Sequence record: MZ234012.1
Length of the DNA stretch: 44,450 nt
Source: Escherichia phage vB_EcoP-101101UKE1
Strand: one strand, 5' to 3'
Made by a program: the position numbers and the translations under genes. The notes under the pieces are model-generated. The model made no database searches, had not been told where the DNA came from, and was given only the letters and a program-made list of their open reading frames with translations. This document shows positions 3,707 to 44,446 of this stretch, one piece after another (the first letter of the stretch is position 1; each line of letters starts with the position of its first letter).

Positions 3707-3729
3707 ATTTACCGGACACTATAGGATAG
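3707..3729 (+). promoter_or_regulatory. phage RNAP promoter (ATTTACCGGACACTATAGGATAG)
   Basis: Matches the recurrent element ATTTACYGGACACTATAGAAG found about 12 times in the window, which is close to the SP6 promoter ATTTAGGTGACACTATAGAAGAG. Confidence 0.75.
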
Positions 3730-3870
3730 CCGTCGGAGACGGGAAAGAAAGGGAAGATAAAGGATATAAAAGGAAGTAATAGGTATTAAAGGTTATATAG
3801 GTTATCTAGGAATACCTATTACCTTCTCCCTTCCTCTTATTACTACTTAGAGGAAGGGCAGATCTAGGTT

Positions 3871-3886
3871 GTCTCACATGTGAGAC
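3871..3886. promoter_or_regulatory. conserved 16-bp palindrome GTCTCACATGTGAGAC (copy 2 of 6)
   Basis: Perfect inverted repeat immediately upstream of the promoter at 3892. Confidence 0.6.
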
Positions 3887-3891
3887 TTCGT

Positions 3892-3914
3892 ATTTACCGG
3901 ACAGTATAGATAAG
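3892..3914 (+). promoter_or_regulatory. phage RNAP promoter variant (ATTTACCGGACAGTATAGATAAG)
   Basis: Consensus-like element with a C-to-G change in the CACTATA core (CAGTATA), upstream of the gp1.1-like gene. T7 likewise has promoters directly before gene 1.1. Confidence 0.55.
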
Positions 3915-3939
3915 ACTAACTTACTTTGGAGATTTAACC

Positions 3940-4068
3940 ATGCGTAACTTTGAGAAGATGACCCGTAAAGCTAACCGTTTTGACATGGAAGAAGGGCAGA
4001 AGAAAGGCAAGAAGCTGAATAAACCTGTCCGTGACCGTGCATCTAAACGCGCTGCGTGGGAGTTCTAA
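3940..4068 (+). CDS. T7 gp1.1-like small basic protein (42 aa, MRNFEKMTRKANRFDMEEGQKKGKKLNKPVRDRASKRAAWEF)
   Basis: Short ORF below the six-frame track cutoff. N-terminus MRNFEKMT and overall length and basic character match my recollection of T7 gene 1.1, and it sits directly after the RNAP gene as in T7. Confidence 0.6.
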   Translation: MRNFEKMTRKANRFDMEEGQKKGKKLNKPVRDRASKRAAWEF

Positions 4069-4071
4069 GTT

Positions 4072-6060
4072 ATGGCTATTATTCAGAATGTACCGTGTCC
4101 TGCCTGTCAAAAGAATGGACATGATATTACTGGCAACCATCTTATGATATTTGACGACGGAGCAGGATACTGTAACCGTGGTCACTTCCATGATAACGGT
4201 AAACCTTATTACCACAAGCCAGAGGGTGGCATCGAGATAACCGAATTGCCTATTACTGGCAATATCAAATATACACCTTCTCAATTCAAAGAAATGGAGA
4301 AGGAAGGGAAGATAAGCGACCCTAAGCTACGCGCCATCGCTCTTGGTGGTATGCGTATGAAAGACCGTTGGGAGGTCATGAATGAGCAAGAAAGGGCAGA
4401 CCAAGAAGCAGAGTGGAAACTTGATGTTGAATGGTTCCTCACGCTTAAGCGTAAGAACCTTGTTTCCCGACACATTCGCGGCGACATTTGCGCATTGTAT
4501 GATGTACGTGTTGGGCACGATGAAGAGGGTAGAGTCTCACGGCATTACTATCCGCGCTTCGAAAAAGGTGAGCTAGTAGGCGCTAAATGTCGCACATTAC
4601 CTAAAGATTTTAAGTTTGGTCATTTAGGTAAACTCTTTGGTATGCAAGATCTTTTCGGTATGAATACTTTGTCTCACGTGTTAGACAAGGGAAGACGAAA
4701 GGATTGCTTGCTTATTGTGGGTGGGGAACTGGATGCACTAGCAGCGCAGCAGATGCTCCTTGATTCTGCCAAGGGCACTAAGTGGGAAGGCCAGCCATAC
4801 CATGTATGGTCTGTCAACAAAGGCGAGTCTTGCCTTGAAGAGATAGTGCAGAACCGTGAGCATATCGCCCAATTCAAGAAGATTATATGGGGTTTTGATG
4901 GAGATGAGGTAGGGCAGAAGCAGAATCAGCAAGCGGCTCGCCTGTTTCCTGGCAAATCCTATATCCTTGAATACCCCTCTGGTTGCAAAGATGCTAACAA
5001 GGCATTGATGGCTGGCAAGGCTAAAGAATTTGTAGATGCATGGTTTAATGCCAAGTCATCTGATGAAGTCTTTGGTAGCCAGATTAAATCTATCGCATCT
5101 CAAAGGGATAAGCTCAAGGCTGCACGTCCAGAGCAAGGACTATCATGGCCTTGGCCTAAGCTGAACAAGGTAACGCTAGGTATTCGTAAGAATCAGCTTA
5201 TCATTGTAGGTGCAGGGTCTGGTGTAGGTAAGACTGAGTTCCTTCGTGAAGTAGTTAAGCACCTCATTGAAGAACACGGTGAATCTGTAGGCATCATTTC
5301 TACAGAAGACCCGATGGTCAAGGTGTCCCGTGCTTTTATCGGCAAGTGGATTGATAAGCGTATTGAGTTGCCGCCAACCAACGACCCGAAAGAAGATGGA
5401 TACCGTGAGGTGTTCGACTACACCGAGGAAGAAGCTAACGCCGCCATTGATTATGTAGCTGATACAGGTAAGCTGTTTGTAGCTGACCTAGAGGGTGACT
5501 ATTCGATGGAAAAGGTAGAGCAAACTTGCCTAGAGTTTGAGGCTATGGGTATTTCTAATATCATCATTGATAACTTAACGGGGATTAAATTAGATGAGCG
5601 TGCTTTTGGTGGGAAGGTTGGTGCACTTGATGAATGCGTCAAGCGGATTGGTACTATCAAAGACCGACACCCGGTTACTATATTCCTTGTATCACACCTT
5701 ACACGTCCTCCGGCAAACCGTACCCAACACGAAGAAGGTGGCGAAGTTATCCTTTCTGACTTCCGAGGCTCAGGCGCTATCGGATTCTGGGCATCTTACG
5801 CCTTGGGGATTGAGCGTAATACAAGAGCTGAAACGCTTGACGAAAGGACTACCACGTACATCTCATGTGTCAAAGACCGCGACCAAGGTATCTGGACTGG
5901 AACCAAGGTCATGCTTAAGGGTGACATTCAAACCGGACGTTTAATGGAACCACAAGCCCGTACTAAGTCATTTGACACCGGCGAAGCAAGGCAACAAGAA
6001 GTACCGGATTTACCGGACACTATAGAAGAGACTAACTTCGATGAAGAAAGTGAGTTCTGA
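4072..6060 (+). CDS. DNA primase/helicase (T7 gp4-like), 662 aa
   Basis: N-terminal zinc ribbon CPACQKNGHD...CNRGH, helicase Walker A GAGSGVGKT, and an acidic C-terminal tail ending DEESEF. Confidence 0.92.
   Translation: MAIIQNVPCPACQKNGHDITGNHLMIFDDGAGYCNRGHFHDNGKPYYHKPEGGIEITELPITGNIKYTPSQFKEMEKEGKISDPKLRAIALGGMRMKDRWEVMNEQERADQEAEWKLDVEWFLTLKRKNLVSRHIRGDICALYDVRVGHDEEGRVSRHYYPRFEKGELVGAKCRTLPKDFKFGHLGKLFGMQDLFGMNTLSHVLDKGRRKDCLLIVGGELDALAAQQMLLDSAKGTKWEGQPYHVWSVNKGESCLEEIVQNREHIAQFKKIIWGFDGDEVGQKQNQQAARLFPGKSYILEYPSGCKDANKALMAGKAKEFVDAWFNAKSSDEVFGSQIKSIASQRDKLKAARPEQGLSWPWPKLNKVTLGIRKNQLIIVGAGSGVGKTEFLREVVKHLIEEHGESVGIISTEDPMVKVSRAFIGKWIDKRIELPPTNDPKEDGYREVFDYTEEEANAAIDYVADTGKLFVADLEGDYSMEKVEQTCLEFEAMGISNIIIDNLTGIKLDERAFGGKVGALDECVKRIGTIKDRHPVTIFLVSHLTRPPANRTQHEEGGEVILSDFRGSGAIGFWASYALGIERNTRAETLDERTTTYISCVKDRDQGIWTGTKVMLKGDIQTGRLMEPQARTKSFDTGEARQQEVPDLPDTIEETNFDEESEF
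6008..6030 (+). promoter_or_regulatory. phage RNAP promoter (ATTTACCGGACACTATAGAAGAG)
   Basis: Exact consensus, embedded in the 3' end of the primase/helicase coding sequence. Confidence 0.75.
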
Positions 6061-6081
6061 TTAGTGTACTTATCAGGGCTT

Positions 6082-6097
6082 GTCTCACACGTGAGAC
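6082..6097. promoter_or_regulatory. conserved palindrome GTCTCACACGTGAGAC with extended arms (copy 3 of 6)
   Basis: Lies inside a longer imperfect hairpin gggcttGTCTCACACGTGAGACaggctc followed by ttatt, just after the primase/helicase stop. Confidence 0.6.
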
Positions 6098-6136
6098 AGG
6101 CTCTTATTAAGTACATTAAATAACTGGAGATTGATT

Positions 6137-6820
6137 ATGTATAAATTAGTATTGAATGTAGGTGATTATGTTCGTAACATCAATGTAACCTCACGTAGAT
6201 ATCGTTGCCGTGGTACTGTGACTAATGTAAGTGAAAACAGCTACTATGTAGAGTACAGTAATGGTATTAGACAGGCTTATCAAAAGGAATCAGCACATAA
6301 CTACCTTGAGAAGATTGGAGAGGTAAGCAATCAATGTAAGTGCGTACACGATGAGGTTTGCGATAAGTGTGCCCGCCAGCTGCATAAAATGCTATTATAC
6401 CCTCTTCGCTATGGTGCTGGTGTTCAAACATTAGCAGAGGCATATGGCAAAAGTAAGATCACACTCAAGAAAGAGCGCCGCAATGTAATCACTGGTAAGA
6501 CTCAAAGTGAAATGATTAAACTATGTGGCACTGCATTAGGTGTTACGCAGTTTAATACTCGTTCATTGGGTAAATCCACAGGGCAAGCTATGGTAAAGAT
6601 TGGCGAAGCCATGATGCATCCAAATGTACCTGTACGAATCATGGATGTTGACCATGCAATCACAGAACACGGTACGCAACGACGTGTAATTAATAAGCAT
6701 TTTGCCGACACTATAGAAGGTATTATTCGTAAGCAAGAGTTGAAGGGTCTTCACATCTTAAATGGTGAAGAATTACTGTACCTACCTATCGTTACTGAAG
6801 AAACATACGTGAATATCTAA
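6137..6820 (+). CDS. hypothetical protein (227 aa)
   Basis: ORF with RBS ggaga 6 nt upstream of ATG 6137 (the track's 6131 start is a TTG). No motif recognised. Confidence 0.5.
   Translation: MYKLVLNVGDYVRNINVTSRRYRCRGTVTNVSENSYYVEYSNGIRQAYQKESAHNYLEKIGEVSNQCKCVHDEVCDKCARQLHKMLLYPLRYGAGVQTLAEAYGKSKITLKKERRNVITGKTQSEMIKLCGTALGVTQFNTRSLGKSTGQAMVKIGEAMMHPNVPVRIMDVDHAITEHGTQRRVINKHFADTIEGIIRKQELKGLHILNGEELLYLPIVTEETYVNI
6699..6720 (+). promoter_or_regulatory. possible weak phage promoter (ATTTTGCCGACACTATAGAAGG)
   Basis: Core GACACTATAGAAGG is perfect but the upstream specificity region has 3 mismatches. It lies inside the 6137..6820 ORF. Confidence 0.35.
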
Positions 6821-6830
6821 GGAGTTAATC

Positions 6831-7049
6831 ATGACTAAGGTATTAATTTATATGCGTGGACCTCATAAATGCTATGCAGTTGTAGCACCAAATGGTGTTA
6901 AGCCCTATAGTACTTCAAAAGGATTGGCATTAATAGGTGCTAGTAGTAGTGCAAGTTTCCAAATGGAACTTTTTGGTCATTGGACTGAATGGCAATTCCG
7001 TGAGGATTTTAAAGTCATTGGCAGCTTCATGGTGAAACATGCAGAATAA
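6831..7049 (+). CDS. hypothetical protein (72 aa)
   Basis: Strong RBS taaggag upstream of ATG 6831. Confidence 0.45.
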   Translation: MTKVLIYMRGPHKCYAVVAPNGVKPYSTSKGLALIGASSSASFQMELFGHWTEWQFREDFKVIGSFMVKHAE

Positions 7050-7225
7050 ACATAGTCTTAAAATGTTCGATGGTCATGAAGACCTGCAAGCCAAGATTAC
7101 TAACCAAGCCTTCCTGTTCGCACAGTTAACTATGGCTGAAGCAAAGAAGAATAGCCTGACGCGTGAACAGGTTATCAAGGAAAGTGAAGTGAAACGTAAG
7201 ATTCGCAGTCGATAAGTCAAGGGTT

Positions 7226-7241
7226 GTCTCACACGTGAGAC
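7226..7241. promoter_or_regulatory. conserved palindrome GTCTCACACGTGAGAC with extended arms (copy 4 of 6)
   Basis: aagggttGTCTCACACGTGAGACagccttt forms a roughly 12-bp imperfect stem followed by a T-rich stretch. Confidence 0.6.
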
Positions 7242-7272
7242 AGCCTTTCATCATATTGATTGGAGGTGCATT

Positions 7273-7380
7273 ATGCCACGTGATTATGATTCTGATTGGG
7301 ATTTCCAAGATTCAATGAATCCAAAACCAGAACGTTCAGATGATTACTACGAAACAGAGGCAATGTATGAAGACTATTAA
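7273..7380 (+). CDS. small acidic protein (35 aa, MPRDYDSDWDFQDSMNPKPERSDDYYETEAMYEDY)
   Basis: Strong RBS ggaggtg before ATG 7273. Below the ORF-track size cutoff. Confidence 0.35.
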   Translation: MPRDYDSDWDFQDSMNPKPERSDDYYETEAMYEDY

Positions 7381-7585
7381 ATTAAGCAAGGTTTGCTCTT
7401 GCGGTAAAGGTTATCGCAGTCGTATTGATGGTAAGTGTGGGCATTGCAGGTCTAAGAAAGAGGCTGCTTTGTTTGATAAGTACCACAATGAATTAGCATA
7501 TAACTATCCTCATCTAACACCTAATTCTTTATTAGGACTTGGTTATAGGGTTAAATACTTTGGAGCAATCTATGAAATCAATTGA
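7367..7585 (+). CDS. small zinc-ribbon protein (CxxC...CxxC)
   Basis: Internal start MKTIKLSKVCSCGKGYRSRIDGKCGHCRSKK with RBS agagg. Its 3' end overlaps the DNA polymerase start. Confidence 0.4.
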   Translation: MKTIKLSKVCSCGKGYRSRIDGKCGHCRSKKEAALFDKYHNELAYNYPHLTPNSLLGLGYRVKYFGAIYEIN

Positions 7586-10118: not shown

Positions 10119-10234
10119 TGGATAGGCTTGACATTGTTTACCTATTCTTCACTTTCTTTCTTACACTCCTTATGCTTGCTTGTTATGGGAGTATGAGACT
10201 AGATATATCTGATGAAGAAGAGGGTTACGACTAA
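10118..10234 (+). CDS. small hydrophobic peptide (38 aa, MDRLDIVYLFFTFFLTLLMLACYGSMRLDISDEEEGYD)
   Basis: ATG overlaps the polymerase stop (TGATG). One predicted transmembrane helix plus an acidic C-terminus. Confidence 0.3.
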   Translation: MDRLDIVYLFFTFFLTLLMLACYGSMRLDISDEEEGYD

Positions 10235-10332
10235 TGCAAACTGCTTTTATTATTCTTGGTATCATATTATTTATGGTAGTATTCTGGGCTTTCTCTGGCA
10301 TTGACCCAGATTGTGATGGTAACTACGACTGA
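10234..10332 (+). CDS. small hydrophobic peptide (32 aa, MQTAFIILGIILFMVVFWAFSGIDPDCDGNYD)
   Basis: TAATG-coupled to the preceding peptide, with the same architecture (TM helix plus acidic tail ending YD). Confidence 0.3.
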   Translation: MQTAFIILGIILFMVVFWAFSGIDPDCDGNYD

Positions 10333-10391
10333 GTTATACTCAAGGTCACTTACGAGTGGCCTTTATGAATAACTTAACTGGAGGAAATATA

Positions 10392-10949
10392 ATGAATGAA
10401 CTGAACACTAAGATGCTCAAGAAAGTTTATAATCTTGTATATAGTATCACGGGCCTACACTTCTACCCTGTAGGCGGTGCGGTTCGTGACACCCTGTACG
10501 GATTAACACCTAAAGACTATGATATGGTGTTGCCTGTAGGGTCTATGGCAGATTCTCAGGCGCACGAAATCATGGAAAATATCTCTGAAGAGATGGCAAT
10601 TATGGGATTTAGTACCAAACTCTACCAATCATACGGTATCAATTTAGGTTATGAAATCAACCCTACCTCTTTTCAGGCTATGTTCCTTAGCTGCATGAAA
10701 GTGCAGATGCGTAATTGCCAACTTGATTTGCTTCTTTCTAAGGCTGAAACCATCCAAGATCATGTACGTAAGCACGATTGCAATATGAATATGGTGTGGT
10801 TCGATGGTAAAGATATCAAGTGGGAGCACGGCGGTGTTACTCCTTTCGTTCCTGTGTTAGAGTTCAACCCTGACGGATGTGATCGTCGCATTGCTTACAT
10901 GGACAAGAAGCGCCATGAACTTATCCGTCACAAATTAATGCATCTTTGA
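10392..10949 (+). CDS. minimal Pol-beta-superfamily nucleotidyltransferase with CCA-adding-enzyme/poly(A)-polymerase head motif
   Basis: Motif VGGAVRDTLYGLTPKDYDMV (GGxVRD followed by DxD) matches the class II CCA-adding enzyme head signature. RBS ggagga 7 nt before ATG 10392. Protein is only ~185 aa. Confidence 0.6.
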   Translation: MNELNTKMLKKVYNLVYSITGLHFYPVGGAVRDTLYGLTPKDYDMVLPVGSMADSQAHEIMENISEEMAIMGFSTKLYQSYGINLGYEINPTSFQAMFLSCMKVQMRNCQLDLLLSKAETIQDHVRKHDCNMNMVWFDGKDIKWEHGGVTPFVPVLEFNPDGCDRRIAYMDKKRHELIRHKLMHL

Positions 10950-10970
10950 TTTACCGGACACTATAGAAGG
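10949..10970 (+). promoter_or_regulatory. phage RNAP promoter (ATTTACCGGACACTATAGAAGG)
   Basis: Consensus match. Confidence 0.75.
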
Positions 10971-11035
10971 AAGTCCTAGGTAATCTAGGTTTATAAGGTA
11001 GTATAGGTAATTAAGTAAATATAGGAGATATAAAC

Positions 11036-11413
11036 ATGTCTATGGTAACTACTCTGGTATTTGTAGCTCAATACTTTCGTGGTCTGGCTAATAAGTTCAA
11101 GTCCAAGGCTATCAAAGCTATTGAGTCTCGCATCGAGGCAGTACAGGCAGAGCAAGTTAAAGTTGAAGAACATCGTAGTTCTCAAATGATTGACTGCCAT
11201 AACCGCTACTATGCATCTCGTGATGACCTTAATGCACGCCAAGTCAAAGAGGTTGAAGAGATGCTGGCACGTCACCAGCAAGAGCGCGACAGCCTGAAAG
11301 CTGAATTTGAAGAGAACAAGGCATCCATCGCCCTTGTACATCAAGCCGCATCTGACAACCTGAAGAAAGAGATTGTTATGCTGGAAATTGAGTTAGACAA
11401 CCTGACCAAATAA
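11036..11413 (+). CDS. hypothetical membrane-anchored coiled-coil protein (125 aa)
   Basis: RBS aggag. N-terminal hydrophobic segment MSMVTTLVFVAQYF followed by heptad-like charged sequence. Confidence 0.45.
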   Translation: MSMVTTLVFVAQYFRGLANKFKSKAIKAIESRIEAVQAEQVKVEEHRSSQMIDCHNRYYASRDDLNARQVKEVEEMLARHQQERDSLKAEFEENKASIALVHQAASDNLKKEIVMLEIELDNLTK

Positions 11414-11434
11414 TTACTGGACACTATAGAACAA
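11412..11434 (+). promoter_or_regulatory. phage RNAP promoter (AATTACTGGACACTATAGAACAA)
   Basis: Consensus match. Confidence 0.7.
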
Positions 11435-11490
11435 TAGGTCGGCTTAGTTCGGCCTATGATTGTGTAGTGTAACAATAGGAGACTAAATAA

Positions 11491-12297: not shown

Positions 12298-12306
12298 GGA
12301 GAAAGG

Positions 12307-12525: not shown

Positions 12526-12526
12526 A

Positions 12527-12542: not shown

Positions 12543-12557
12543 AAATCGGTGTCCGGT

Positions 12558-12580
12558 ATTTACTGGACACTATAGAAGAG
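12558..12580 (+). promoter_or_regulatory. phage RNAP promoter (ATTTACTGGACACTATAGAAGAG)
   Basis: Exact consensus. Confidence 0.8.
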
Positions 12581-13010: not shown

Positions 13011-13012
13011 TT

Positions 13013-13047
13013 GATGCCCTGTCTGCCTTAGTGTAGGCAGGGTCTTT
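13013..13047 (+). terminator. putative rho-independent terminator
   Basis: Imperfect hairpin gccctgtctgcc...ggcagggtc followed by ttttg. Confidence 0.45.
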
Positions 13048-13074
13048 TGCGTAATAGTTATTGGAGAATGAATT

Positions 13075-14716: not shown

Positions 14717-15716
14717 GCTTCGCAGCTTGTACAAAGACTCCGAGGTACTTGATGCAATCGAGCAAGCTACCGACGAGAAAGGTAATGTTAATTATAATGA
14801 GATGGCACGTGTATTATCGTGTCACCCTGTGGGTAAGAAGATTACCCGCCAGTTGGCTCGATACTGGCATGGTCAATTCAAGAAGACCAAGAAGAAAGGT
14901 GATTATTACCAGACCCTTCTGCAAGAAGATAAGCGTATCAAAGAAGAGCGTAAGCTCAGGACTCCTGACCGCTACGAGGATTTGGCTATTGTACCATTGC
15001 CTGACTCGCCTCATCGAAGTGTACTGGTAATCCCTGATACTCATGCACCTTATGAGCATCCAGATACCTTAGAGTTCCTTGCAGCAGTCGCGGCACGTTA
15101 CCGTCCAGATACAGTGGTTCACTTAGGAGATGAGGCAGATAAACACGCCCTCTCCTTCCATGACTCTGACCCTAATCTGGATAGTGCTGGCATGGAGCTA
15201 GAGAAGGCTCGTGTCTTCATGCACAAGTTGCACAAGATGTTCCCTGTGATGCGCCTGTGTCATTCTAATCACGGCTCTATGCACTTCCGTAAGGCAAGCG
15301 CCAAGGGTATTCCAGTGCAATATCTTCGCACCTACCGTGAAGTCTTTTTCCCAAATGGAGGTGGCGACCAGTGGGATTGGCAGCATACACATGTTCTTGA
15401 GTTGCCGAATGGTGAACAAGTGGCATTCAAGCATCAACCTGCTGGCTCTGTCCTAGCAGATGCAGCGCATGAGCGTATGAACCTTGTGTGTGGTCACTTG
15501 CACGGTAAGATGTCTGTGGAGTACGCACGTAATACACATGAACAGTATTGGGCTGTGCAAGGTGGCTGCTTAATTGATGAGTCATCCCGTGCATTTGCCT
15601 ATGGTCGTGAGTCTAAATACAAGCCAGCATTAGGTTGTGTGGTCATTCTGGAGGGTGTGCCTCACATTGTCCCGATGCAAACCAATAGCGACAACCGTTG
15701 GATTGGCAAGATTTAG
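14709..15716 (+). CDS. calcineurin-like metallophosphoesterase with ~100-aa N-terminal extension
   Basis: Phosphoesterase motifs IPDTHAPYEHPD (DxH), HLGDEAD (GD), HSNHG (NH) and CGHLHG (GHxH). Probable TTG start at 14709 after RBS aaggagg; the track ORF opens at 14577. Confidence 0.75.
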   Translation: MGKLRSLYKDSEVLDAIEQATDEKGNVNYNEMARVLSCHPVGKKITRQLARYWHGQFKKTKKKGDYYQTLLQEDKRIKEERKLRTPDRYEDLAIVPLPDSPHRSVLVIPDTHAPYEHPDTLEFLAAVAARYRPDTVVHLGDEADKHALSFHDSDPNLDSAGMELEKARVFMHKLHKMFPVMRLCHSNHGSMHFRKASAKGIPVQYLRTYREVFFPNGGGDQWDWQHTHVLELPNGEQVAFKHQPAGSVLADAAHERMNLVCGHLHGKMSVEYARNTHEQYWAVQGGCLIDESSRAFAYGRESKYKPALGCVVILEGVPHIVPMQTNSDNRWIGKI

Positions 15717-15734
15717 TTGACACTATAGAACAAA
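15711..15734 (+). promoter_or_regulatory. phage RNAP promoter (ATTTAGTTGACACTATAGAACAAA)
   Basis: One mismatch from the SP6 promoter core ATTTAGGTGACACTATAGAA. Overlaps the phosphoesterase stop codon. Confidence 0.75.
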
Positions 15735-20913: not shown

Positions 20914-20936
20914 ATTTACTGGACACTATAGAAGGG
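20914..20936 (+). promoter_or_regulatory. phage RNAP promoter upstream of the capsid gene (ATTTACTGGACACTATAGAAGGG)
   Basis: Consensus match. A strong promoter before the capsid gene is typical of T7-like phages. Confidence 0.8.
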
Positions 20937-22187: not shown

Positions 22188-22195
22188 TACCTATG

Positions 22196-22228
22196 CCCTA
22201 TCTACCTTGCGTAGGTAGGGTTCTTTTT
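22196..22228 (+). terminator. rho-independent terminator after the capsid gene (T-phi-like position)
   Basis: Hairpin ccctatctac...gtaggtaggg followed by ttcttttt. Confidence 0.7.
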
Positions 22229-22241
22229 GTTAGGAGGATTC

Positions 22242-33503: not shown

Positions 33504-33786
33504 ACATGCAGCTACAGAGGATGAGGTTGGCATTCTGCATGGTGCTATTACCAAAATCTTCAATAAGAAAGCACAGGCAATACTGGACACTATAGAAGAA
33601 GACCCTGATGCAGCATTACATTTAGTGTCTGGTAAGGATATTGGTGCGATGTGTAAGTGGGTTCTTGATAACGGCATTACCGCCACACCTGCTGCACAGC
33701 AGGAAGAGTCCAAGTTATCTAAGCGCCTCAAGGCTATCCGAGAGGCATCCAGTGGCAAGATTATTCAGTTTACAAAAGAGGAGTGA
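33487..33786 (+). CDS. putative terminase small subunit (assigned by position)
   Basis: GTG start after RBS ggaggg, located between the holin and the HNH/large terminase genes as for T7 gene 18. No motif recognised. Confidence 0.4.
   Translation: MSVHNKHAATEDEVGILHGAITKIFNKKAQAILDTIEEDPDAALHLVSGKDIGAMCKWVLDNGITATPAAQQEESKLSKRLKAIREASSGKIIQFTKEE
33579..33600 (+). promoter_or_regulatory. phage RNAP promoter variant (AATACTGGACACTATAGAAGAA)
   Basis: Core ACTGGACACTATAGAAG is perfect. It lies inside the putative small terminase gene, upstream of the HNH and large terminase genes. Confidence 0.55.
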
Positions 33787-34231: not shown

Positions 34232-36116
34232 AGAATCACAGGCAGAGGCATTAAAGCGGTGGGAAAACCTTAAAGAACTACAAGACACTTTTAAATATAC
34301 AGCGGAAGGTTTGCTTCTCTTTGCAGATACAGTTATTCATAACTTAATTGCAGGCAACCCTCATCTGATTCGTATGCAGGCTGATATCTTGAAGTTCCTA
34401 TTTTACGGACACAAGTACCGCCTCATCGAAGCGCCTCGTGGTATCGCTAAGACAACACTATCAGCAATCTATACGGTATTCCGTATTATTCATGAACCGC
34501 ATAAGCGTATCATGGTTGTGTCCCAAAACGCCAAGCGAGCAGAGGAAATCGCAGGTTGGGTAGTTAAAATCTTCCGTGGCTTAGACTTTCTTGAGTTTAT
34601 GCTGCCGGATATCTACGCTGGGGACCGTGCATCCGTTAAGGCGTTTGAGATTCATTACACCCTACGTGGTAGTGATAAGTCTCCTTCTGTATCCTGTTAC
34701 TCAATCGAAGCAGGTATGCAGGGTGCTCGTGCTGATATTATTCTAGCGGATGACGTAGAGTCGATGCAGAATGCTCGTACGGCAGCGGGCCGTGCCTTGC
34801 TTGAGGAACTGACTAAGGAGTTTGAATCTATCAACCAGTTTGGGGATATCATTTACCTTGGTACACCTCAGAACGTAAACTCTATCTACAACAACCTACC
34901 TGCTCGTGGTTACTCTGTTCGTATCTGGACTGCGCGTTACCCTTCAGTAGAGCAAGAGCAATGTTATGGCGACTTCCTTGCACCTATGATTGTTCAAGAT
35001 ATGAAGGACAACCCAGCACTTCGCTCAGGGTACGGGTTGGATGGTAATAGTGGTGCACCTTGTGCCCCTGAAATGTATGATGATGAAGTCCTGATTGAGA
35101 AGGAAATCTCTCAGGGTGCTGCTAAGTTCCAGCTTCAGTTCATGCTTAACACTCGCATGATGGATGCTGACAGATACCCATTACGCCTGAACAATCTAAT
35201 CTTCACCTCGTTTGGTACAGAGGAAGTCCCTGTGATGCCTACGTGGAGTAATGATTCCATAAACATCATTGGTGATGCACCTAAGTATGGTAACAAGCCT
35301 ACGGATTTCATGTACAGACCTGTAGCTCGCCCATATGAATGGGGCGCTGTCTCCCGCAAGATTATGTATATTGACCCTGCGGGTGGTGGTAAGAACGGAG
35401 ATGAGACGGGTGTAGCCATCGTATTCCTGCACGGCACATTCATTTATGTGTATCAGTGCTTTGGTGTACCTGGCGGATACCGAGAGTCGTCCCTGAATCG
35501 CATTGTGCAAGCCGCAAAGCAGGCGGGTGTTAAAGAGGTATTCATTGAGAAGAACTTTGGTCATGGCGCGTTTGAGGCGGTAATTAAGCCGTACTTTGAA
35601 CGAGAGTGGCCTGTAACTCTGGAAGAGGATTACGCCACCGGACAGAAAGAGTTGCGTATCATTGAGACGCTGGAGCCGCTCATGGCAGCACATAGGCTTA
35701 TCTTCAATGCAGAGATGGTGAAGTCAGACTTTGAGTCGGTACAGCACTATCCGCTTGAACTACGCATGTCCTACAGTCTTTTCAATCAAATGTCGAACAT
35801 AACGATTGAGAAGAACAGCCTCCGGCACGATGACCGCCTAGACGCCCTGTATGGCGCTATACGGCAATTAACTTCTCAGATAGACTATGACGAGGTTACA
35901 CGGATTAATCGCCTCAGAGCGCAGGAGATGCGCGATTACATCCATGCTATGAATACACCTCATTTACGCAGGGCAATGCTATATGGAGATTACGGTACTG
36001 AGCGAAGAGTGACCAACACTTCCGTAGCGATGCAGCAGCGAGTTTACGGGCAGAACTACCGAAATAAATCGGCAAGCAGAAATACACTTTCTGCAAGGAT
36101 TTCAAGGACTTATTAA
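34218..36116 (+). CDS. terminase large subunit (T7 gp19-like)
   Basis: Walker A-like PRGIAKTT and Walker B-like ILADDVE. Probable start ATG 34218 (RBS aaggag); the track ORF opens at 34179. Confidence 0.9.
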   Translation: MAKARESQAEALKRWENLKELQDTFKYTAEGLLLFADTVIHNLIAGNPHLIRMQADILKFLFYGHKYRLIEAPRGIAKTTLSAIYTVFRIIHEPHKRIMVVSQNAKRAEEIAGWVVKIFRGLDFLEFMLPDIYAGDRASVKAFEIHYTLRGSDKSPSVSCYSIEAGMQGARADIILADDVESMQNARTAAGRALLEELTKEFESINQFGDIIYLGTPQNVNSIYNNLPARGYSVRIWTARYPSVEQEQCYGDFLAPMIVQDMKDNPALRSGYGLDGNSGAPCAPEMYDDEVLIEKEISQGAAKFQLQFMLNTRMMDADRYPLRLNNLIFTSFGTEEVPVMPTWSNDSINIIGDAPKYGNKPTDFMYRPVARPYEWGAVSRKIMYIDPAGGGKNGDETGVAIVFLHGTFIYVYQCFGVPGGYRESSLNRIVQAAKQAGVKEVFIEKNFGHGAFEAVIKPYFEREWPVTLEEDYATGQKELRIIETLEPLMAAHRLIFNAEMVKSDFESVQHYPLELRMSYSLFNQMSNITIEKNSLRHDDRLDALYGAIRQLTSQIDYDEVTRINRLRAQEMRDYIHAMNTPHLRRAMLYGDYGTERRVTNTSVAMQQRVYGQNYRNKSASRNTLSARISRTY

Positions 36117-36136
36117 TTACTGGACACTATAGAAGG
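36115..36136 (+). promoter_or_regulatory. phage RNAP promoter (AATTACTGGACACTATAGAAGG)
   Basis: Consensus match, overlapping the terminase stop codon. Confidence 0.75.
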
Positions 36137-36272
36137 AAGGCCCAGATAATAAGAGAAAATAATAGGTAATATATAGGTTAACCTAGGTTATATAGGTATG
36201 CCTTAGTATGGGTGTACTCTGTACACCCTATTCCTTACTACCTTACTATATTTACATAATAGGAGAGAGACA

Positions 36273-36551: not shown

Positions 36552-36569
36552 GAGAAGGAGGAAGATTAC

Positions 36570-37207: not shown

Positions 37208-37315
37208 GTTGTGTTGCATGGTGTGAACGCATGGTTGCTAAGGCTTCAGAGGAAGGCAACTATGAAGATTGGCAGAACTACTCAACTTTATTAGCTCAAT
37301 GGAAAGGGAGATGCA

Positions 37316-37465
37316 ATGAAAAAGCTGTTCAAATCTAAGAAGGTTGTAGGTGCACTAGTTGCATTGGCAATTGCTCTTGTTTCTGTAGGTCTTGGTGTAG
37401 ACCTTGGCTCTGGCACGGAATCCTCTGTGACAGATGTGGTCTGCCAAGTGATCACCTGTGAATAA
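37316..37465 (+). CDS. small membrane protein (49 aa), possible holin or antiholin
   Basis: MKKLFKSKKVVGALVALAIALVSVGLGV has one TM helix. RBS gggag 6 nt upstream. Lies between the endolysin and the spanins. Confidence 0.35.
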   Translation: MKKLFKSKKVVGALVALAIALVSVGLGVDLGSGTESSVTDVVCQVITCE

Positions 37466-37679
37466 GTTTCTAGAAGTTCTGGCAGGTCTTATTGGCCTGC
37501 TTGTCTCTGCTAAGAAGAAACAAGAAGAGAAGGAGGCACAAAGTGAAGCGAATCATGTTAGTGACAACCCTTCTGATTGGTTCGCTGACCACTTCCGGGT
37601 GTCAGCAGGCGTTACCAGAGAAAGCAATGGTGAAACCTCTGAGGCCGACGCTGACGGAAGTTTACGAGGTAGACGATAA
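37458..37679 (+). CDS. putative i-spanin (Rz-like), unusually short
   Basis: N-terminal TM segment FLEVLAGLIGLLVSA. Contains the o-spanin start in the +1 frame. Confidence 0.35.
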   Translation: MNKFLEVLAGLIGLLVSAKKKQEEKEAQSEANHVSDNPSDWFADHFRVSAGVTRESNGETSEADADGSLRGRR

Positions 37680-37752
37680 GGTCTGCTTTAGTAAGCCTGA
37701 CGCTACAAAATTAGGTTTGTATATTCTTTCGCTAGAACGCGGATATAATTAA
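37555..37752 (+). CDS. putative o-spanin (Rz1-like outer-membrane lipoprotein)
   Basis: Lipoprotein signal MLVTTLLIGSLTTSGC with a lipobox Cys, then a Pro-containing mature region. Overlaps the i-spanin ORF out of frame. Confidence 0.55.
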   Translation: MLVTTLLIGSLTTSGCQQALPEKAMVKPLRPTLTEVYEVDDKVCFSKPDATKLGLYILSLERGYN

Positions 37753-37781
37753 TACATAGCTTTATGTATCAGTGTCTTACG

Positions 37782-37805
37782 ATTTACTGGACACTATAGA
37801 AGAGG
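37782..37805 (+). promoter_or_regulatory. phage RNAP promoter upstream of the tailspike genes (ATTTACTGGACACTATAGAAGAGG)
   Basis: Exact consensus. Confidence 0.8.
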
Positions 37806-39867: not shown

Positions 39868-41580
39868 ATGCTTCAAAGATTAAGTGCTTACTTGGTGAAG
39901 TACAAGAGTAAACTAACAGGTACTATTGAGCGCCTGCTATCTGATAAACTATCGGATACTATAGATGTTGCGGATTTTGGAGTTAATCCCTCTTCTAATG
40001 ACAACAGGCAAGCCCTTCAAGCTGCATTTAATGCGGTCAGATTGCTAGGCGGTGGTACTGTATCAGTCACTAAGGCTGGCGAATATAAACTAAGTGGTAC
40101 TGTTGAGATATTTGCTAATACACACTTCAAGGTTGCTAAAGGTGTAACATTTGTACGTGACTACGAAACAGGAGATACGCTATTCAGATTATCACAAGGG
40201 CAAGCTAGTAATGTAACAGTCAGTGGAGGTGTCTATGAAGGCAATGGTCACACTAAAGGAGATACACCTTTTGTAGTATTTGCATCTACTAGTAATAATG
40301 ATTTGAAGTTTGAAGGCATAATAGTTAACAATGTAGTGGACTACCACGCCATAGATTTAGCAGATTGGAACAACGTAGTTATTCGTGATTGTAAATTCCT
40401 AGGGTTTAAGAATACAGGCAGTCGTAACTTCTCAGAGGCTATACAGTTAGACCCAGGACTTATTACAGTAGGTCGCTATGTGCAGTCTAGTGGTTTACTG
40501 GTAGAGAATTGCTATGCTGGCCCAAACCTTGATTCTGGATTTGGCGGGTATGGTGCTCTAGTAGGAAATCATGCATCAGCTTATGGTGTTCAAGATAACA
40601 ACATTAGAATCCTAAATTGCACTACAGATGGTGCGCTCTTTGCAGGTGTACGTGTATTTAACTGGAAAAACTGGATAGTACGTGGTTGCACATTTAGAAA
40701 TTCTAATGCAAGAGGTGTTCATGTTACACCTGTCTCCTCTCAAACTAAACCGCAAGGAACTCGACAAGGTAGTGTTGTAGATTGTACTTTTGATGGCGTA
40801 AGAACACCAGTGCTAATTGCTGCACCATCTTGGCCTTTTACCGATATTAGTGACATTTGGCATGACCATATTGAAATTTCTAATAATACTATGATCCTCA
40901 CAGAGGATGTATCCTATGGTGTAGATGCAAGGTGGTGTAAGAATTTAATTGTAAAGGGTAATACAGGCTCTGGTGGCTTAGGGTTAATCGGTTTACGCTT
41001 TGGGACAAAATACCACATAGAAGGTAATACTTGGGAAAACGGAAGAGGTAGTGGGATTTGGTTAGGTGAGTCTGATGCTACTACATTCATTGGTACTGGA
41101 TTATCGGGCGAAGGTATACTTAGTCGTAATATCCTCTCTAAATTAGGGCAATATGGTATTCATGTAAACTGCAAGGTTGGCGGTCTAGTGATTAAGGCTA
41201 ATAATATGAAGGAAGTATCTACAGCTGAAGCAGGTAGGCACTTCATTAGCATAGACACAGGAGCTAACAACATCCTAGTAGAAGGTAATATTGGAGTAGA
41301 TGGAGAAAGCCCTAACAAGCCAAGCCTTGGTATTCGTGTTACTTCTTCTTGTTCCAATATTAAACTCATTGGCAATGATTGCTATGGTACACAGGCGCCT
41401 CAGAATAACCAAGGAGTCGGTTCTAGTACGGTGATTGTTTATGGACTAAATGGCGATCCTACAACTTTAGGCGTAGGTGCACCTGTAGGCTCTTTAGCAA
41501 CTGATATCAATGGGTCTGGTGGTAGTACATTGTACGTTAAAGAATCTGGTACATCTGCTCAAGGTTGGGTTGCAAAGTAG
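39868..41580 (+). CDS. tailspike 2: pectate-lyase-like right-handed beta-helix protein
   Basis: RBS aaaggagg. DVADFGVNPSSNDNRQALQAAFNA is typical of pectate-lyase-superfamily tailspikes, and Gly/Asn/Val-rich repeats follow. Confidence 0.75.
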   Translation: MLQRLSAYLVKYKSKLTGTIERLLSDKLSDTIDVADFGVNPSSNDNRQALQAAFNAVRLLGGGTVSVTKAGEYKLSGTVEIFANTHFKVAKGVTFVRDYETGDTLFRLSQGQASNVTVSGGVYEGNGHTKGDTPFVVFASTSNNDLKFEGIIVNNVVDYHAIDLADWNNVVIRDCKFLGFKNTGSRNFSEAIQLDPGLITVGRYVQSSGLLVENCYAGPNLDSGFGGYGALVGNHASAYGVQDNNIRILNCTTDGALFAGVRVFNWKNWIVRGCTFRNSNARGVHVTPVSSQTKPQGTRQGSVVDCTFDGVRTPVLIAAPSWPFTDISDIWHDHIEISNNTMILTEDVSYGVDARWCKNLIVKGNTGSGGLGLIGLRFGTKYHIEGNTWENGRGSGIWLGESDATTFIGTGLSGEGILSRNILSKLGQYGIHVNCKVGGLVIKANNMKEVSTAEAGRHFISIDTGANNILVEGNIGVDGESPNKPSLGIRVTSSCSNIKLIGNDCYGTQAPQNNQGVGSSTVIVYGLNGDPTTLGVGAPVGSLATDINGSGGSTLYVKESGTSAQGWVAK

Positions 41581-41739: not shown

Positions 41740-42045
41740 GCAGGTTAATATCTTAGTGTACACAAGGGCAGACCTAGGTTTGCTCTTAGTGTATTTACAA
41801 TGGAGGTCTTATGTATATACCTATGGAAGCAATAGTAGGTTGCCTGTGTTTGTTGGTAGGCTTCATTATAGGCTTAATAGCAAACCCTTAGTGTAATCCA
41901 AGGAGGTAACATGCAAGAAGAGAATTGGGATGTGTAATATTGGGTTTGGAGGAGGTTGAACCTTAGTCCTGTACAAGGATTAACCAAAGTCAAAATTTTG
42001 ATATATGCGTGTGTCAGTTCTCTCGCCCTCGCCCTCGCCGGGTTG

Positions 42046-42066
42046 CCCCCCCCCCCCCCCCCCCCC
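42046..42066. repeat. 21-nt poly(C) homopolymer
   Basis: Uninterrupted run of 21 C, preceded by (CGCCCT)x3 and followed by TATAGGG. Confidence 0.9.
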
Positions 42067-42326
42067 TATAGGGTGGCCTGAGGGAATCCGTCTTCGACGG
42101 GCAGGGCTGATGTACTCCTTGGATAGTACAAGGGAGGCGGAGGGAACGCCTAGGACGGCCTAGGGAATGGCTTAGTGGTGGACAAGGTGATTACCTTAGT
42201 GAAGCCTCTTAGTGCATTCCTGAGGCCATTCAGGGCGTTTATGAGGGATTGACAGGGTGAATGGGTGTGGGCTATCTGTTCGTTTCGTTCACTCCGCTTG
42301 CGCTCCGTTCACTCGCTCACGTGTAC

Positions 42327-42453: not shown

Positions 42454-42648
42454 TTGCACATGCAAGAATGTAAGATGCCAATAGGTCGCGGTCGGTAGAC
42501 CGCTAAAGAGAGAGAATAGTAATAAGATGCAGTAGGAGGAACACCAGAAACCTAGCCAACCTAGCCTATCCTAGCTCTGTATCTATTGCTTTTCCTTAGT
42601 CTAACATGTGAGACAACCTAGATTTATCTTAGTGATGATATCTTAGTG

Positions 42649-42677
42649 TTGACAAGGCCATCTCAATATAATACTAT
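42649..42677 (+). promoter_or_regulatory. candidate sigma70 early promoter (TTGACA-17-TACTAT)
   Basis: Perfect -35 hexamer, 17-bp spacer and a good -10, upstream of the first early gene. Confidence 0.55.
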
Positions 42678-43232: not shown

Positions 43233-43261
43233 TTGACAGCCACGGCATACAAGGTTACATT
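43233..43261 (+). promoter_or_regulatory. candidate sigma70 early promoter (TTGACA-17-TACATT)
   Basis: Perfect -35 hexamer with a 17-bp spacer. Confidence 0.45.
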
Positions 43262-43353
43262 AAGCATCAAGACGGCGACGTCTTTAAACATCCCGCTCTT
43301 TAACAATACGGTTTGTGTCTTGATAGGCTAACTAACTAACTAAGGTAATTATC

Positions 43354-43464
43354 ATGAAAGGTTTAATTTGTGTAGAACGTATGGTCAATGGTAAACTTGA
43401 AATATTACCACTGGAAAACCAATCTAGCTTCAAAGAGTGGTATGGCTGTTTCTCACTGATTTAA
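43354..43464 (+). CDS. early small protein (36 aa)
   Basis: ORF after the TAACTAACTAA stop cluster with a weak RBS. Confidence 0.3.
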   Translation: MKGLICVERMVNGKLEILPLENQSSFKEWYGCFSLI

Positions 43465-43614
43465 GGTAGAGGCTGGCACTAGTCAGCCTATCAAGGCGCA
43501 AACCAAGCTCTTTAACAATTTGGATAAAGCTTCTTAGTCTGGATAGGTTAAACCTAGGAGATTCTCTTGAGTCTCCTATAATGTAACCTAACTAACTAAA
43601 TGAGGATTAATAAC

Positions 43615-43968
43615 ATGGCTATGTCTAATATGACTTACTCTCAGGTTTACAACACCGCTCATGCTGCATTAGTTGAACGTATCTGGAATGATGATATTGA
43701 TTGTATCGATAACGCACATGATGCAATCCATGATGCGGCGGATAGCGCTGTACCAATCTATTATGCTGACATCTTCTCCGTGATGGCGAGTGAAGGTATT
43801 GATCACTTCTTCGAAGACTCCGGCCTGATGCCAGATACTAAGGATGTAACGGTCGTACTACAAGCCCGTATTTATGAACAACTCACCATTGATTTATGGG
43901 AACGTGTTCAAGATATGATTGTTGAGTACACCACTTACGCTGAGTATTCAGAAGAAGAGGAAGAATAA
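43615..43968 (+). CDS. ocr: Ocr-like DNA-mimic anti-restriction protein (T7 gene 0.3 homolog)
   Basis: MAMSNMTY..., [43 protein letters not shown] and [15 protein letters not shown] closely match my recollection of T7 Ocr. 117 aa with an acidic C-terminus. RBS gagga 7 nt before ATG 43615. Confidence 0.8.
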
Positions 43969-43969
43969 G

Positions 43970-44083
43970 ATGGAAAAGCTATACAACTTCATCTTTTCAG
44001 ACGGTGTAACCCTGAAGTGTTCCCTACGATTCGCACAAATTCGTGAGGAAGTACTAGGCACTACATACAAACTATTTAGCTGA
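43970..44083 (+). CDS. early small protein (37 aa)
   Basis: Begins 2 nt after the ocr stop, in the slot of T7 gene 0.4. No sequence similarity recognised. Confidence 0.3.
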   Translation: MEKLYNFIFSDGVTLKCSLRFAQIREEVLGTTYKLFS

Positions 44084-44098
44084 CACTATAAGAGAAGG
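44074..44098 (+). promoter_or_regulatory. degenerate phage-promoter-like element (ATTTAGCTGACACTATAAGAGAAGG)
   Basis: Strong resemblance to the consensus but with TATAAGAG in place of TATAGAAG. Confidence 0.3.
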
Positions 44099-44159
44099 CT
44101 TAACAAGGCGTTGCTACGGTAGCGCCTGATTAAACTTTCACTTACTAGGAGTTAAGACT

Positions 44160-44387
44160 ATGGATTTAGATAGCATCATTATGGCATTTGCTCTTATTGG
44201 CTTAAGCTGGTGCTCCTATCACCTTTACCGTGAGTTCTTATTTGATAAAGCTAAACGCAAACTAAGAAAGGAAGGCGGCAATTACCTTTGTGTAAGAGGT
44301 GGGCTTGTAGAATACATTGCACCTAACGGCACGGAATGCGCCATTAGCAAAGATGCATTTATAGAAACGTGGCATTACATCAAGTAA
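44160..44387 (+). CDS. early membrane protein (75 aa)
   Basis: RBS aggag. N-terminal TM helix IIMAFALIGLSWCSY. Confidence 0.4.
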   Translation: MDLDSIIMAFALIGLSWCSYHLYREFLFDKAKRKLRKEGGNYLCVRGGLVEYIAPNGTECAISKDAFIETWHYIK

Positions 44388-44421
44388 CTAGCCTATAGTC
44401 TACCTGAGTGGGCTATGTGAT

Positions 44422-44446
44422 ATTTACTTACACTATATAAGGTGAC
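44422..44446 (+). promoter_or_regulatory. degenerate phage-promoter-like element (ATTTACTTACACTATATAAGGTGAC)
   Basis: Partial match to the consensus, immediately upstream (across the circular junction) of the ORF at 1. Confidence 0.25.

Follow-up and report, generated by a model that had tools for sequence, protein, structure and literature searches.

The genome of Escherichia phage vB_EcoP-101101UKE1 carries a repeated element resembling the SP6 promoter, which raises two questions: whether the RNA polymerase encoded by this phage shares the specificity of SP6 RNA polymerase, and whether the copies that depart from the consensus are degenerate. The window analysed here is the whole 44,450-nt stretch of record MZ234012.1, a Vectrevirus genome in circularly permuted form, with 99.9% identity to phage vB-Eco-KMB47 and ~95% to K1-5. 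We are confident that these elements make up the promoters of a K1-5/K1E-type (Vectrevirus) phage and that they are read by the polymerase encoded at 988-3615. The set is already known, and its members are standard transcription signals, real but ordinary.

Genome layout and the encoded RNA polymerase

The order of the genes is the same in the window and in SP6, as a sequence-only reading of this DNA had proposed. That reading had also placed two imperfect promoter copies, at 44074 and 44422, near the genome start, a placement that does not hold in a permuted window. Homology to the terminal repeat of K1-5 puts the physical left end near 42023, and both sites are therefore 2.0 to 2.4 kb within the early region, 5' of the RNA polymerase gene. 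The polymerase and the signals that may delimit transcription units are as follows.

988..3615, + strand: single-subunit RNA polymerase gene, 875 aa (identity ~99% to K1-5, 85% to SP6, 35% to T7)
3220..3279, + strand: codons of the specificity loop (residues 745-764), located by alignment
42649..42677, + strand: candidate host sigma-70 early promoter (TTGACA, 17 nt spacer, TACTAT), by consensus match only
43233..43261, + strand: candidate host sigma-70 early promoter (TTGACA, 17 nt spacer, TACATT), by consensus match only
3623..3654, + strand: terminator-like hairpin and T run just 3' of the polymerase gene (10-pair stem with 6 G-C, then TTTCTTTT), likely the end of the early transcription unit
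13016..13052, + strand: terminator-like hairpin and T run, a candidate phage-polymerase terminator resembling in sequence the hairpin after the capsid gene
22195..22231, + strand: terminator-like hairpin and T run 3' of the major capsid gene, equivalent in position to T7 T-phi

The best solved-structure matches of the encoded polymerase are to T7 RNA polymerase, with which its catalytic motifs align. Within the specificity loop, Ser747, Lys755 and Ser757 correspond to Asn748, Arg756 and Gln758 of T7. The sequence-only reading had suggested comparing the loop residues with those of SP6 and K1-5; the comparison separates the two, since the loop is identical to those of K1-5 and K1E and differs from that of SP6 at Ser747 (Arg in SP6) and Glu753 (Asp in SP6).

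Identification of promoter elements

A scan of the whole window for ATTTACYGGACACTATAGAAG with up to 3 mismatches returned 12 matches, all on the + strand (3707, 3892, 6008, 6699, 10949, 11412, 12558, 15711, 20914, 33578, 36115 and 37782), five of them exact, compared with none in 100 dinucleotide-preserving shuffles. This bears out the estimate of about 12 copies before middle and late genes. The sites at 44074 and 44422 are additional to these. A position weight matrix was trained on the 11 clean copies; in 30 random genomes it reached at most 13.9 bits, and no site was found when the minus strand was scanned. The element is 21 bases long, occurs in many copies and is oriented as the genes are; all 14 elements lie in an intergenic gap or the 3' end of a gene, with the next gene directly downstream. 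The core CACTATAG (-7 to +1, with G at +1) is present in 11 copies, listed below, and deviates at 3892 (CAGTATAG), 44074 (CACTATAA) and 44422 (CACTATAT).

3707..3727, + strand: promoter ATTTACCGGACACTATAGGAT, first of two tandem promoters 3' of the polymerase gene; orthologues at K1-5 6020, K1E 6824 and SP6 6118
6008..6028, + strand: promoter, exact consensus, in the 3' end of the primase/helicase gene, 5' of gene 10; found by pattern and matrix
6699..6719, + strand: promoter ATTTTGCCGACACTATAGAAG, in the 3' end of gene 10; orthologues at K1-5 9010, K1E 10190 and SP6 9112
10949..10969, + strand: promoter, exact consensus; SP6 orthologue at 12542
11412..11432, + strand: promoter AATTACTGGACACTATAGAAC; SP6 orthologue at 13005, with a GAACAA start in both
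12558..12578, + strand: promoter, exact consensus; SP6 orthologue at 14286
15711..15731, + strand: promoter ATTTAGTTGACACTATAGAAC, 5' of the nucleotide kinase gene; same sequence in K1-5 and K1E, SP6 orthologue at 17428 (ATTTAAGTGACACTATAGAACAA)
20914..20934, + strand: promoter, exact consensus, 5' of the major capsid gene; SP6 orthologue at 22413
33578..33598, + strand: promoter CAATACTGGACACTATAGAAG, in the small terminase gene, 5' of the HNH endonuclease and large terminase genes; identical in K1-5 and K1E
36115..36135, + strand: promoter AATTACTGGACACTATAGAAG, at the large terminase stop codon; SP6 orthologue at 37773
37782..37802, + strand: promoter, exact consensus, 5' of the tailspike genes; SP6 orthologue at 39910

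Promoter dialect and polymerase specificity

The commonest sequence at -12 to -8 in the window is CTGGA or CCGGA, and each of the 13 elements alignable without gaps (the 44422 element excluded) has C or T at -11. Across related phages, -11 is G in 53/53 sites from 7 SP6-type genomes, compared with C or T in 93/95 sites from 12 Vectrevirus genomes or contigs; the two groups overlap at -12 and -10. The window thus combines Ser, Lys and Ser at the positions of T7 residues 748, 756 and 758 with CYGGA at -12 to -8, as in the K1E/K1-5 class, and has neither the Arg at the T7 Asn748 position nor the G at -11 of the SP6 (Zindervirus) class. Because -11 tracks Ser747 versus Arg, the window promoters are, as far as sequence can tell, a sister dialect of SP6 and not one of the same specificity. 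It is important to note that this pairing is not a general one-residue code, as among eight dialects the Arg-bearing K13PH07C1L and L031 have T or A at -11.

The copy at 15711 illustrates how close the two dialects can come. The statement that it is one base from the SP6 promoter core is true over -17 to +3; relative to the SP6 consensus ATTTAGGTGACACTATAGAAG it differs at -11 and +4. It is SP6-like at -12 and -10 and keeps the Vectrevirus pyrimidine at -11, so that its sole difference over -17 to +3 falls at the discriminating position.

The alternative, that the encoded polymerase has the specificity of SP6 polymerase and that neutral drift explains the sequence differences at -12 to -10, we consider unlikely. 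The two promoters are identical over -17 to -13 and -9 to +4, and the polymerases are 85% identical. RNA polymerase No. 2049, with 97% identity to the window enzyme across 531 aa and a shared RVSTCLMG loop, can transcribe in vitro from both TATTTACTGGACACTATAG... and the SP6 promoter (PMC13029058), its activity on the latter being at least that on its own consensus; a natural Vectrevirus contig with a Ser loop (L023:2709) even carries an exact SP6 consensus promoter at the position of the tailspike promoter. However, these observations do not account for the split of the two groups at -11 together with Arg versus Ser, nor for the placement of K1E and SP6 in distinct clusters of loop residues and promoter bases (PMC11880802). 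The sister-dialect reading accommodates both sides if cross-recognition is one-way, as is probably the case: the Vectrevirus enzyme would tolerate the SP6 promoter, and the SP6 enzyme, it can be argued, requires G at -11, because none of the SP6-type genomes has a pyrimidine there. The earlier description of the specificity as very close to SP6 is therefore apt for the relatedness of promoters and polymerases and fails at -11 and at the Ser/Arg residue.

Off-consensus promoter copies

The three copies with a deviating core, and the hairpin that follows one of them, are listed below.

3892..3912, + strand: promoter ATTTACCGGACAGTATAGATA (conserved variant), second of the tandem pair, 31 nt 5' of gene 8; 21.8 bits
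44074..44094, + strand: early-region promoter variant ATTTAGCTGACACTATA-AGAG (+1 after ATTTAGCTGACACTATA); 24.1 bits
44097..44136, + strand: conserved 5'-leader hairpin directly 3' of the 44074 start site, by consensus folding
44422..44442, + strand: promoter-like element, probably a relic, ATTTACTTA-CACTATATAAGG, overlapping the gene 6 ribosome-binding site (AAGGTG); 6.2 bits

The copies at 44074 and 44422 had been called degenerate, and all three had been put forward as possibly weaker or early-firing promoters. Degeneracy suits only the copy at 44422 (core TATATAAGG); as to early firing, the analysis shows for 44074 a location 5' of the polymerase gene. The 44422 copy scores far below the 21.6 bits of the K1-5 version (K1-5 position 2323) because it has one base fewer. 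Insertions and deletions alter the spacing between its halves even among close relatives within Vectrevirus, and CC2, Klebsiella phage cp4 and SP6 lack the element altogether; it is therefore probably a non-functional relic.

The copies at 44074 and 3892 are, judged from the alignments, conserved variants and not products of decay, because their deviations are conserved across genera. The core at 3892, CAGTATAGATA with CAGTATA, has G at -5 and a GATA start; both features occur in every Vectrevirus copy of this promoter, two of which differ at -10, and again at position 6801 of the distinct lineage L031. The core at 44074 is TATAAGAG, with a predicted +1 at the A at 44091. The element overlaps the gene 4 stop codon; gene 5 starts 69 nt downstream, with gene 6 and then the RNA polymerase gene beyond it. 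The sequence of the element is identical in K1-5, K1E and KMB47. Seven promoter dialects share the TATAAGA deviation at this position of the early region, always 5' of the polymerase gene, and the -12 to -5 region of the element tracks the dialect of each lineage (GACAC, GCTAC, GCGAG, GCGGAC, TAGCAC, CCCAC). That imperfection is conserved at both sites suggests that promoter strength or the start nucleotide is tuned there.

A tentative extension of this reading, which we regard as possible but not probable, is that 44074 represents a specialised promoter present across the whole subfamily, always 5' of the polymerase gene, with an ATP start or a +1 shifted by one base. If so, polymerase synthesis would be under weak positive feedback that may respond to nucleotide levels and has no counterpart in T7.

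The hairpin after 44074 offers a different explanation, namely that the element and hairpin are mainly a processing or stability site on host-made early RNA and that the likeness to a promoter has no role in initiation. In T7, RNase III cleaves early RNAs at comparable intergenic hairpins. The hairpin lies inside the early transcription unit and covaries: of 15 pairs predicted by consensus folding across five lineages, 8 are retained through two-sided changes. However, two lineages (L033 and L043) have the element without the hairpin, and a shift of -12 to -5 with lineage dialect would be expected only of an element that its cognate polymerase reads, which makes this explanation improbable for the element itself. 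The hairpin alone could nonetheless function in early RNA made by the host polymerase, for instance as a site for RNase III, and not in RNA started at 44074. Least probable, and in our view very doubtful, is that 44074, 44422 and 3892 are all decaying, non-functional promoter remnants: all three bear substitutions in the otherwise invariant CACTATAG core and 44422 does behave as a relic, but decay would give differing, lineage-specific lesions, whereas 44074 is unchanged among K1-5, K1E and KMB47, TATAAGA is kept in seven dialects despite diverged specificity regions, and the -5 G and GATA start of 3892 persist throughout Vectrevirus and in L031.

Proposed transcription model

Taken as a conserved promoter variant, 44074 can be placed in the following scheme. 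Host RNA polymerase would start at the sigma-70-type promoters close to 42649 and 43233 and transcribe the early region, including the polymerase gene, as far as the terminator at 3623. By analogy with SP6 and T7, the phage polymerase would then initiate at G(+1) of ...CACTATA, followed by GAAG, at the eleven canonical promoters, those from 3707 to 15711 presumably serving DNA-metabolism genes and those from 20914 to 37782 the structural, packaging and tailspike genes. Homology to T7 predicts that an N-terminal AT-rich-recognition loop reads ATTTA at -17 to -13 and that the specificity loop reads -12 to -7, where Ser747 (Arg in SP6) would go with the pyrimidine at -11 (G in SP6). At 44074, where TATA is followed by AGAG, the start may be at A or be shifted by one base, or the promoter may simply be weak, and weak polymerase-dependent transcription of the polymerase gene would be allowed because no strong terminator was found between the two, the interval containing a weak, G-U-rich terminator-like hairpin at 44394-44417. 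A conserved imperfect promoter 5' of the polymerase gene hints at positive feedback on polymerase synthesis.

Position -11 and one loop residue (Ser/Arg) separate the Vectrevirus and SP6 dialects, and natural and in vitro evidence together suggest one-way cross-recognition. Such a dialect rule is useful for the design of non-cross-reacting polymerase/promoter pairs.

Comparison with known systems

K1-5 and K1E contain the same 13 elements at the same relative positions, mostly identical base for base, the differences being the pyrimidine (C or T) at -11 of two copies and a 44422 element one base shorter than that of K1-5. The GenBank records of K1-5 and K1E contain no promoter annotation; their promoters were reportedly presented when the two genomes were first published (Scholl et al. 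2004; Stummeyer et al. 2006). The window differs from both phages in an additional HNH endonuclease gene 3' of the 33578 promoter.

The SP6 promoter has the same length and architecture, and nearly all window elements have a positional counterpart in SP6, with which copy-specific start sequences such as GAACAA are shared; the counterpart of the 33578 promoter (SP6 35949) is degenerate. The -12 to -10 consensus is CYG in the window and GGT in SP6.

T7 likewise pairs a single-subunit polymerase, with AT-rich-recognition and specificity loops, with 23-bp class II/III promoters. A tandem pair directly 3' of the polymerase gene (phi1.1A/phi1.1B in T7, 3707/3892 in the window) and a terminator after the capsid gene are common to both; however, identity between the polymerases is only 35%, and the promoter sequences differ over -17 to -8. 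T7 phi2.5 is a natural T7 promoter that starts with A. It and 44074 are both natural phage-promoter variants with +1 A by sequence, an analogy only, the 44074 start being predicted. T7 is not known to have a phage promoter directly 5' of gene 1, unlike this subfamily, in which the 44074-type element lies 5' of the polymerase gene.

The polymerase/promoter pair is already in biotechnological use, both as enzyme No. 2049 and in the C3P3 system, where the K1E polymerase and K1E promoter drive expression in cells (PMC6412113). When the K1E and SP6 clusters were grafted into T7 RNA polymerase, T7-derived recognition rules were not followed (PMC11880802).

Sequence searches and comparisons

The window was searched on both strands with the pattern ATTTACYGGACACTATAGAAG, allowing up to three mismatches, and 100 dinucleotide-preserving shuffles served as control. 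A position weight matrix was trained on 11 clean copies. A promoter catalogue was drawn from 28 IMG/VR contigs (designated L followed by a number) surrounding related polymerases, and the element at 44422 was compared in an alignment of 11 phage records. Elements are named by start coordinate and promoter positions are relative to +1. Coordinates in the KMB47 record equal window coordinates plus 1908. The GenBank records of K1-5, K1E, SP6, and KMB47 contain no promoter features.

Genome identity and layout

The first 20 kb of the window shares 99.9% identity with Escherichia phage vB-Eco-KMB47 and 93 to 97% with many Vectrevirus (K1-5/K1E type) genomes, K1-5 among them, and the gene order of the window agrees with that of K1-5, K1E, and SP6, as the sequence-only reading had recognized in calling it SP6-type. 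The window is circularly permuted, its first base region being the gene 6 ATG, and homology with the 234-bp terminal repeat of K1-5 places the physical left end near 42023, with one repeat copy at approximately 42023-42274. The elements at 44074 and 44422, which had been placed near the genome start, thus lie 2.0 to 2.4 kb into the early region and precede the polymerase gene (988-3615). Good matches to the sigma-70 consensus at 42649 and 43233 are candidate early promoters for the host polymerase.

Two differences from K1-5 concern gene content. Between the genes for the small and large terminases, immediately 3' of the 33578 promoter, the window has an HNH endonuclease gene (33788-34231; Pfam HNH_3, E = 2.6e-11); K1-5 has no gene at this position. 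The second tailspike gene (39868-41580) encodes a 570-aa right-handed beta-helix protein where K1-5 has an 811-aa K1 endosialidase; in the near-identical KMB47 record, short ORFs alone are annotated across the equivalent interval.

The promoter set

The promoter-like repeat proposed from the sequence is borne out: the pattern matched 12 sites in the window, all on the + strand and five of them exact, and none in the 100 shuffles. Of 14 + strand occurrences of the CACTATA core, 13 belong to the elements treated here, and the one at 31242 is an unrelated site. The 11 clean copies scored 27 to 38 bits with the weight matrix, 44074 scored 24.1 bits, and 3892 scored 21.8 bits, compared with a maximum of 13.9 bits (mean 8.6) among 30 composition-matched random genomes, while 44422 reached just 6.2 bits. 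Three further candidates (29738, 32644, and 39947) scored 7 to 8 bits, inside the random range, and were discarded as noise. All elements occupy an intergenic gap or the last codons of a gene, immediately upstream of the following gene.

Placement of promoter elements (start, + strand coordinates)
3707, 3892: tandem pair 3' of the polymerase gene and a terminator (3623-3646)
6008: 3' end of the primase/helicase gene
6699: 3' end of gene 10
10949, 11412, 12558, 15711: amid DNA-metabolism genes
20914: ahead of the major capsid gene
33578: within the small terminase gene
36115: at the large terminase stop codon
37782: ahead of the tailspike genes

K1-5 and K1E have an orthologue for every window element, mostly identical, and SP6 has orthologues for nearly all, including copy-specific starts (GAACAA at 11412 and 15711). 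The left-side promoters (44074, 3707, 3892, 6008, 6699, and 10949) carry C at position -11, and the right-side promoters, from 11412 to 37782, carry T; this split may be drift, since K1-5 and K1E depart from it at single sites.

Two terminator-like hairpins, which are likely phage-polymerase terminators, share a near-identical stem, GCCCTnTCTnCCTT...AGGnAGGGT, with a T run after it.

Terminator-like hairpins
13016-13043
22195-22221, 3' of the capsid gene

Another repeated sequence, the 16-bp palindrome GTCTCAC(A/G)(T/C)GTGAGAC, is present in eight copies against 0.28 expected. Seven of the eight are intergenic, and three closely precede promoters 3707, 3892, and 12558, at a distance of 2 to 15 nt. 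Related phages carry their own versions, often beside promoters (GTCTAACATGTTGGAC in SP6, TGTCCAACGTGTTGGACA in K13PH07C1L, and GTCTCACACGTGAGACA in phiEa1H). The palindrome might bind a protein or form a small hairpin in RNA.

Copies of the 16-bp palindrome
3689-3704
3871-3886
4671-4686
6082-6097
7226-7241
12527-12542
29093-29108
42599-42614

Polymerase specificity loop and position -11

The encoded polymerase (875 aa) is approximately 99% identical to that of K1-5, 85% to that of SP6, and 35% to that of T7. Its N-terminal AT-rich-recognition loop is near-identical to that of SP6 (GKRGRAP in the window, GKKGRAP in SP6), which fits the ATTTA at -17 to -13 common to both. Within the specificity loop, Lys and Ser occupy the positions corresponding to T7 Arg756 and Gln758 in both enzymes, but the counterpart of T7 Asn748 differs: Ser747 in the window, Arg in SP6. 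In T7, Asn748 reads promoter positions -10 and -11. This contact is described again in PMC11880802, in which K1E and SP6 form separate clusters; both were grafted into T7 polymerase, and neither obeys the T7 rules. Among solved structures there is no SP6-type polymerase, the matches being T7 and mitochondrial enzymes only.

The base at -11 covaries with this residue, being G at 53 of 53 sites in SP6-type phages (7 genomes; Arg) and C or T at 93 of 95 sites in Vectrevirus (12 genomes or contigs; Ser). As the two groups overlap at -12 and -10, and -9 (G) and -8 (A) are invariant at every site of both, -11 is the clean discriminator between them. A single residue-to-base code does not extend over eight dialects (lineage-specific polymerase/promoter specificities): Arg accompanies G at -11 in SP6, phD2B, and L029, T in K13PH07C1L, and A in L031, and Ser accompanies C at both -12 and -11 in Erwinia phages. 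The contrast is clean solely between SP6 and Vectrevirus. In L029, a Lys-to-Phe change at the Arg756-aligned position coincides with altered -9 and -8.

The promoter at 15711 (ATTTAGTTGACACTATAGAAC) departs from the SP6 consensus only at -11 over -17 to +3, as the one-base difference noted earlier implied, and also differs at +4. The single base is thus the discriminating one. Cross-recognition appears to run in one direction. Over 531 aa, polymerase No. 2049 (PMC13029058) shares 97% identity with the window enzyme, and a 13-residue stretch of the loop differs at one position; in vitro, No. 2049 transcribed from its own consensus (TATTTACTGGACACTATAG...) and used the SP6 promoter at least as well (PMC13029058). 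An exact SP6 consensus (ATTTAGGTGACACTATAGAAGAG) also stands before the tailspike gene at 2709-2731 of L023, a Vectrevirus-type contig that encodes a Ser-loop polymerase, in a position orthologous to window 37782. A pyrimidine at -11 was found in none of the 7 SP6-type genomes, which suggests that the Ser enzyme is permissive at this position and the Arg enzyme strict. A polymerase specificity "very close to SP6" is for this reason just partly right.

The off-consensus elements

The elements at 44074, 3892, and 44422 do carry TATAAGAG, CAGTATA, and TATATAAGG, respectively, as first read, but only 44422 resembles a decayed copy. The 44074 element is identical in K1-5, K1E, and KMB47, and an element with the TATA-AGA(G) start is present upstream of the polymerase loop codons in every dialect examined, at a distance of approximately 3.3 to 3.6 kb (approximately 4.6 kb in the Erwinia-type contig).

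Counterparts of the 44074 element
SP6-type: AATTATGTGACACTATAAGAGG
L029: AATTATGTAGCACTATAAGAGGC
phD2B: AATAAGAGGCTACTATAAGAGAG
L033: AATAAAGGCGGACTATAAGAGGG
Klebsiella K13PH07C1L type: TAATAGTGGCGAGTATAAGATAG
Erwinia type (L043): ATTAACCACCCACTATAAGAGGA

The upstream half of these elements tracks the dialect of each lineage and the odd start region is unchanged, a pattern that would be expected for a promoter of the cognate polymerase deliberately held off-consensus; the description of 44074 as degenerate does not hold. With no strong terminator between 44074 and the polymerase gene, although a weak, G-U-rich terminator-like hairpin was flagged at 44394-44417, the element could let the phage polymerase transcribe genes 5 and 6 and its own gene. 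Directly downstream of its start site is a hairpin (44097-44136), flanked by TTAACA and GATTAA, in which 8 of the 15 pairs are supported by compensatory changes in a comparison of five lineages (Vectrevirus, SP6-type, L029, and phD2B included); the hairpin may be a leader structure or 5' stabiliser, or a processing (RNase III) site. In Klebsiella phages of the K13PH07C1L type, a second element with a TATAAGA start occurs (L006:21689, L035:19369, and L044:19059); in L035 and L044, a canonical promoter follows approximately 46 nt downstream.

Nor is 3892, the second promoter of the tandem pair, degenerate: its deviations (G at -5 and a GATA start) are kept in every Vectrevirus copy and recur in L031 (AATTAGAGACCAGTATAGATATA), a distinct lineage. 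The Klebsiella and Erwinia dialects have G at -5 as their consensus, and the second tandem promoter is slightly off-consensus in other lineages as well.

At the 44422 position, the spacing between ATTTACTTA and CACTATA differs among the 11 related phages: the window, vB_EcoP_D, and Phi100-A have no additional base, and K1-5, LL11, and vB_EcoP_B have one. The element is shorter still (ATTTACTTACACTATAAGG) in Sem1 and VEc3, and in this alignment absent from CC2, Klebsiella phage cp4, and SP6; an IMG/VR scan for variants returned one contig. The invariant features here are the ribosome-binding site AAGGTG, which the element overlaps, and a hairpin upstream. This hairpin (AGCCTATAG...CTATGTGA, 44390-44420, between genes 5 and 6) is near-invariant in the 11 phages, including SP6, in contrast to the variable 44422 sequence immediately downstream of it. 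Because a promoter of fixed geometry would not stand such spacing variation, 44422 is regarded as a probable promoter relic. Read by eye as a sigma-70 promoter, it would have a -10 hexamer overlapping the gene 6 start codon, and this reading was rejected.

Comparison with known systems

The window elements are the K1-5/K1E promoter set, real, rightly taken as phage promoters, and already known. The original genome papers reportedly described this set. The K1-5/K1E-type polymerase and promoter pair has been put to experimental use (PMC6412113, PMC13029058) and has been classified (PMC11880802). Only one point is potentially new, namely that the TATAAGAG promoter ahead of the polymerase gene is conserved throughout the subfamily.
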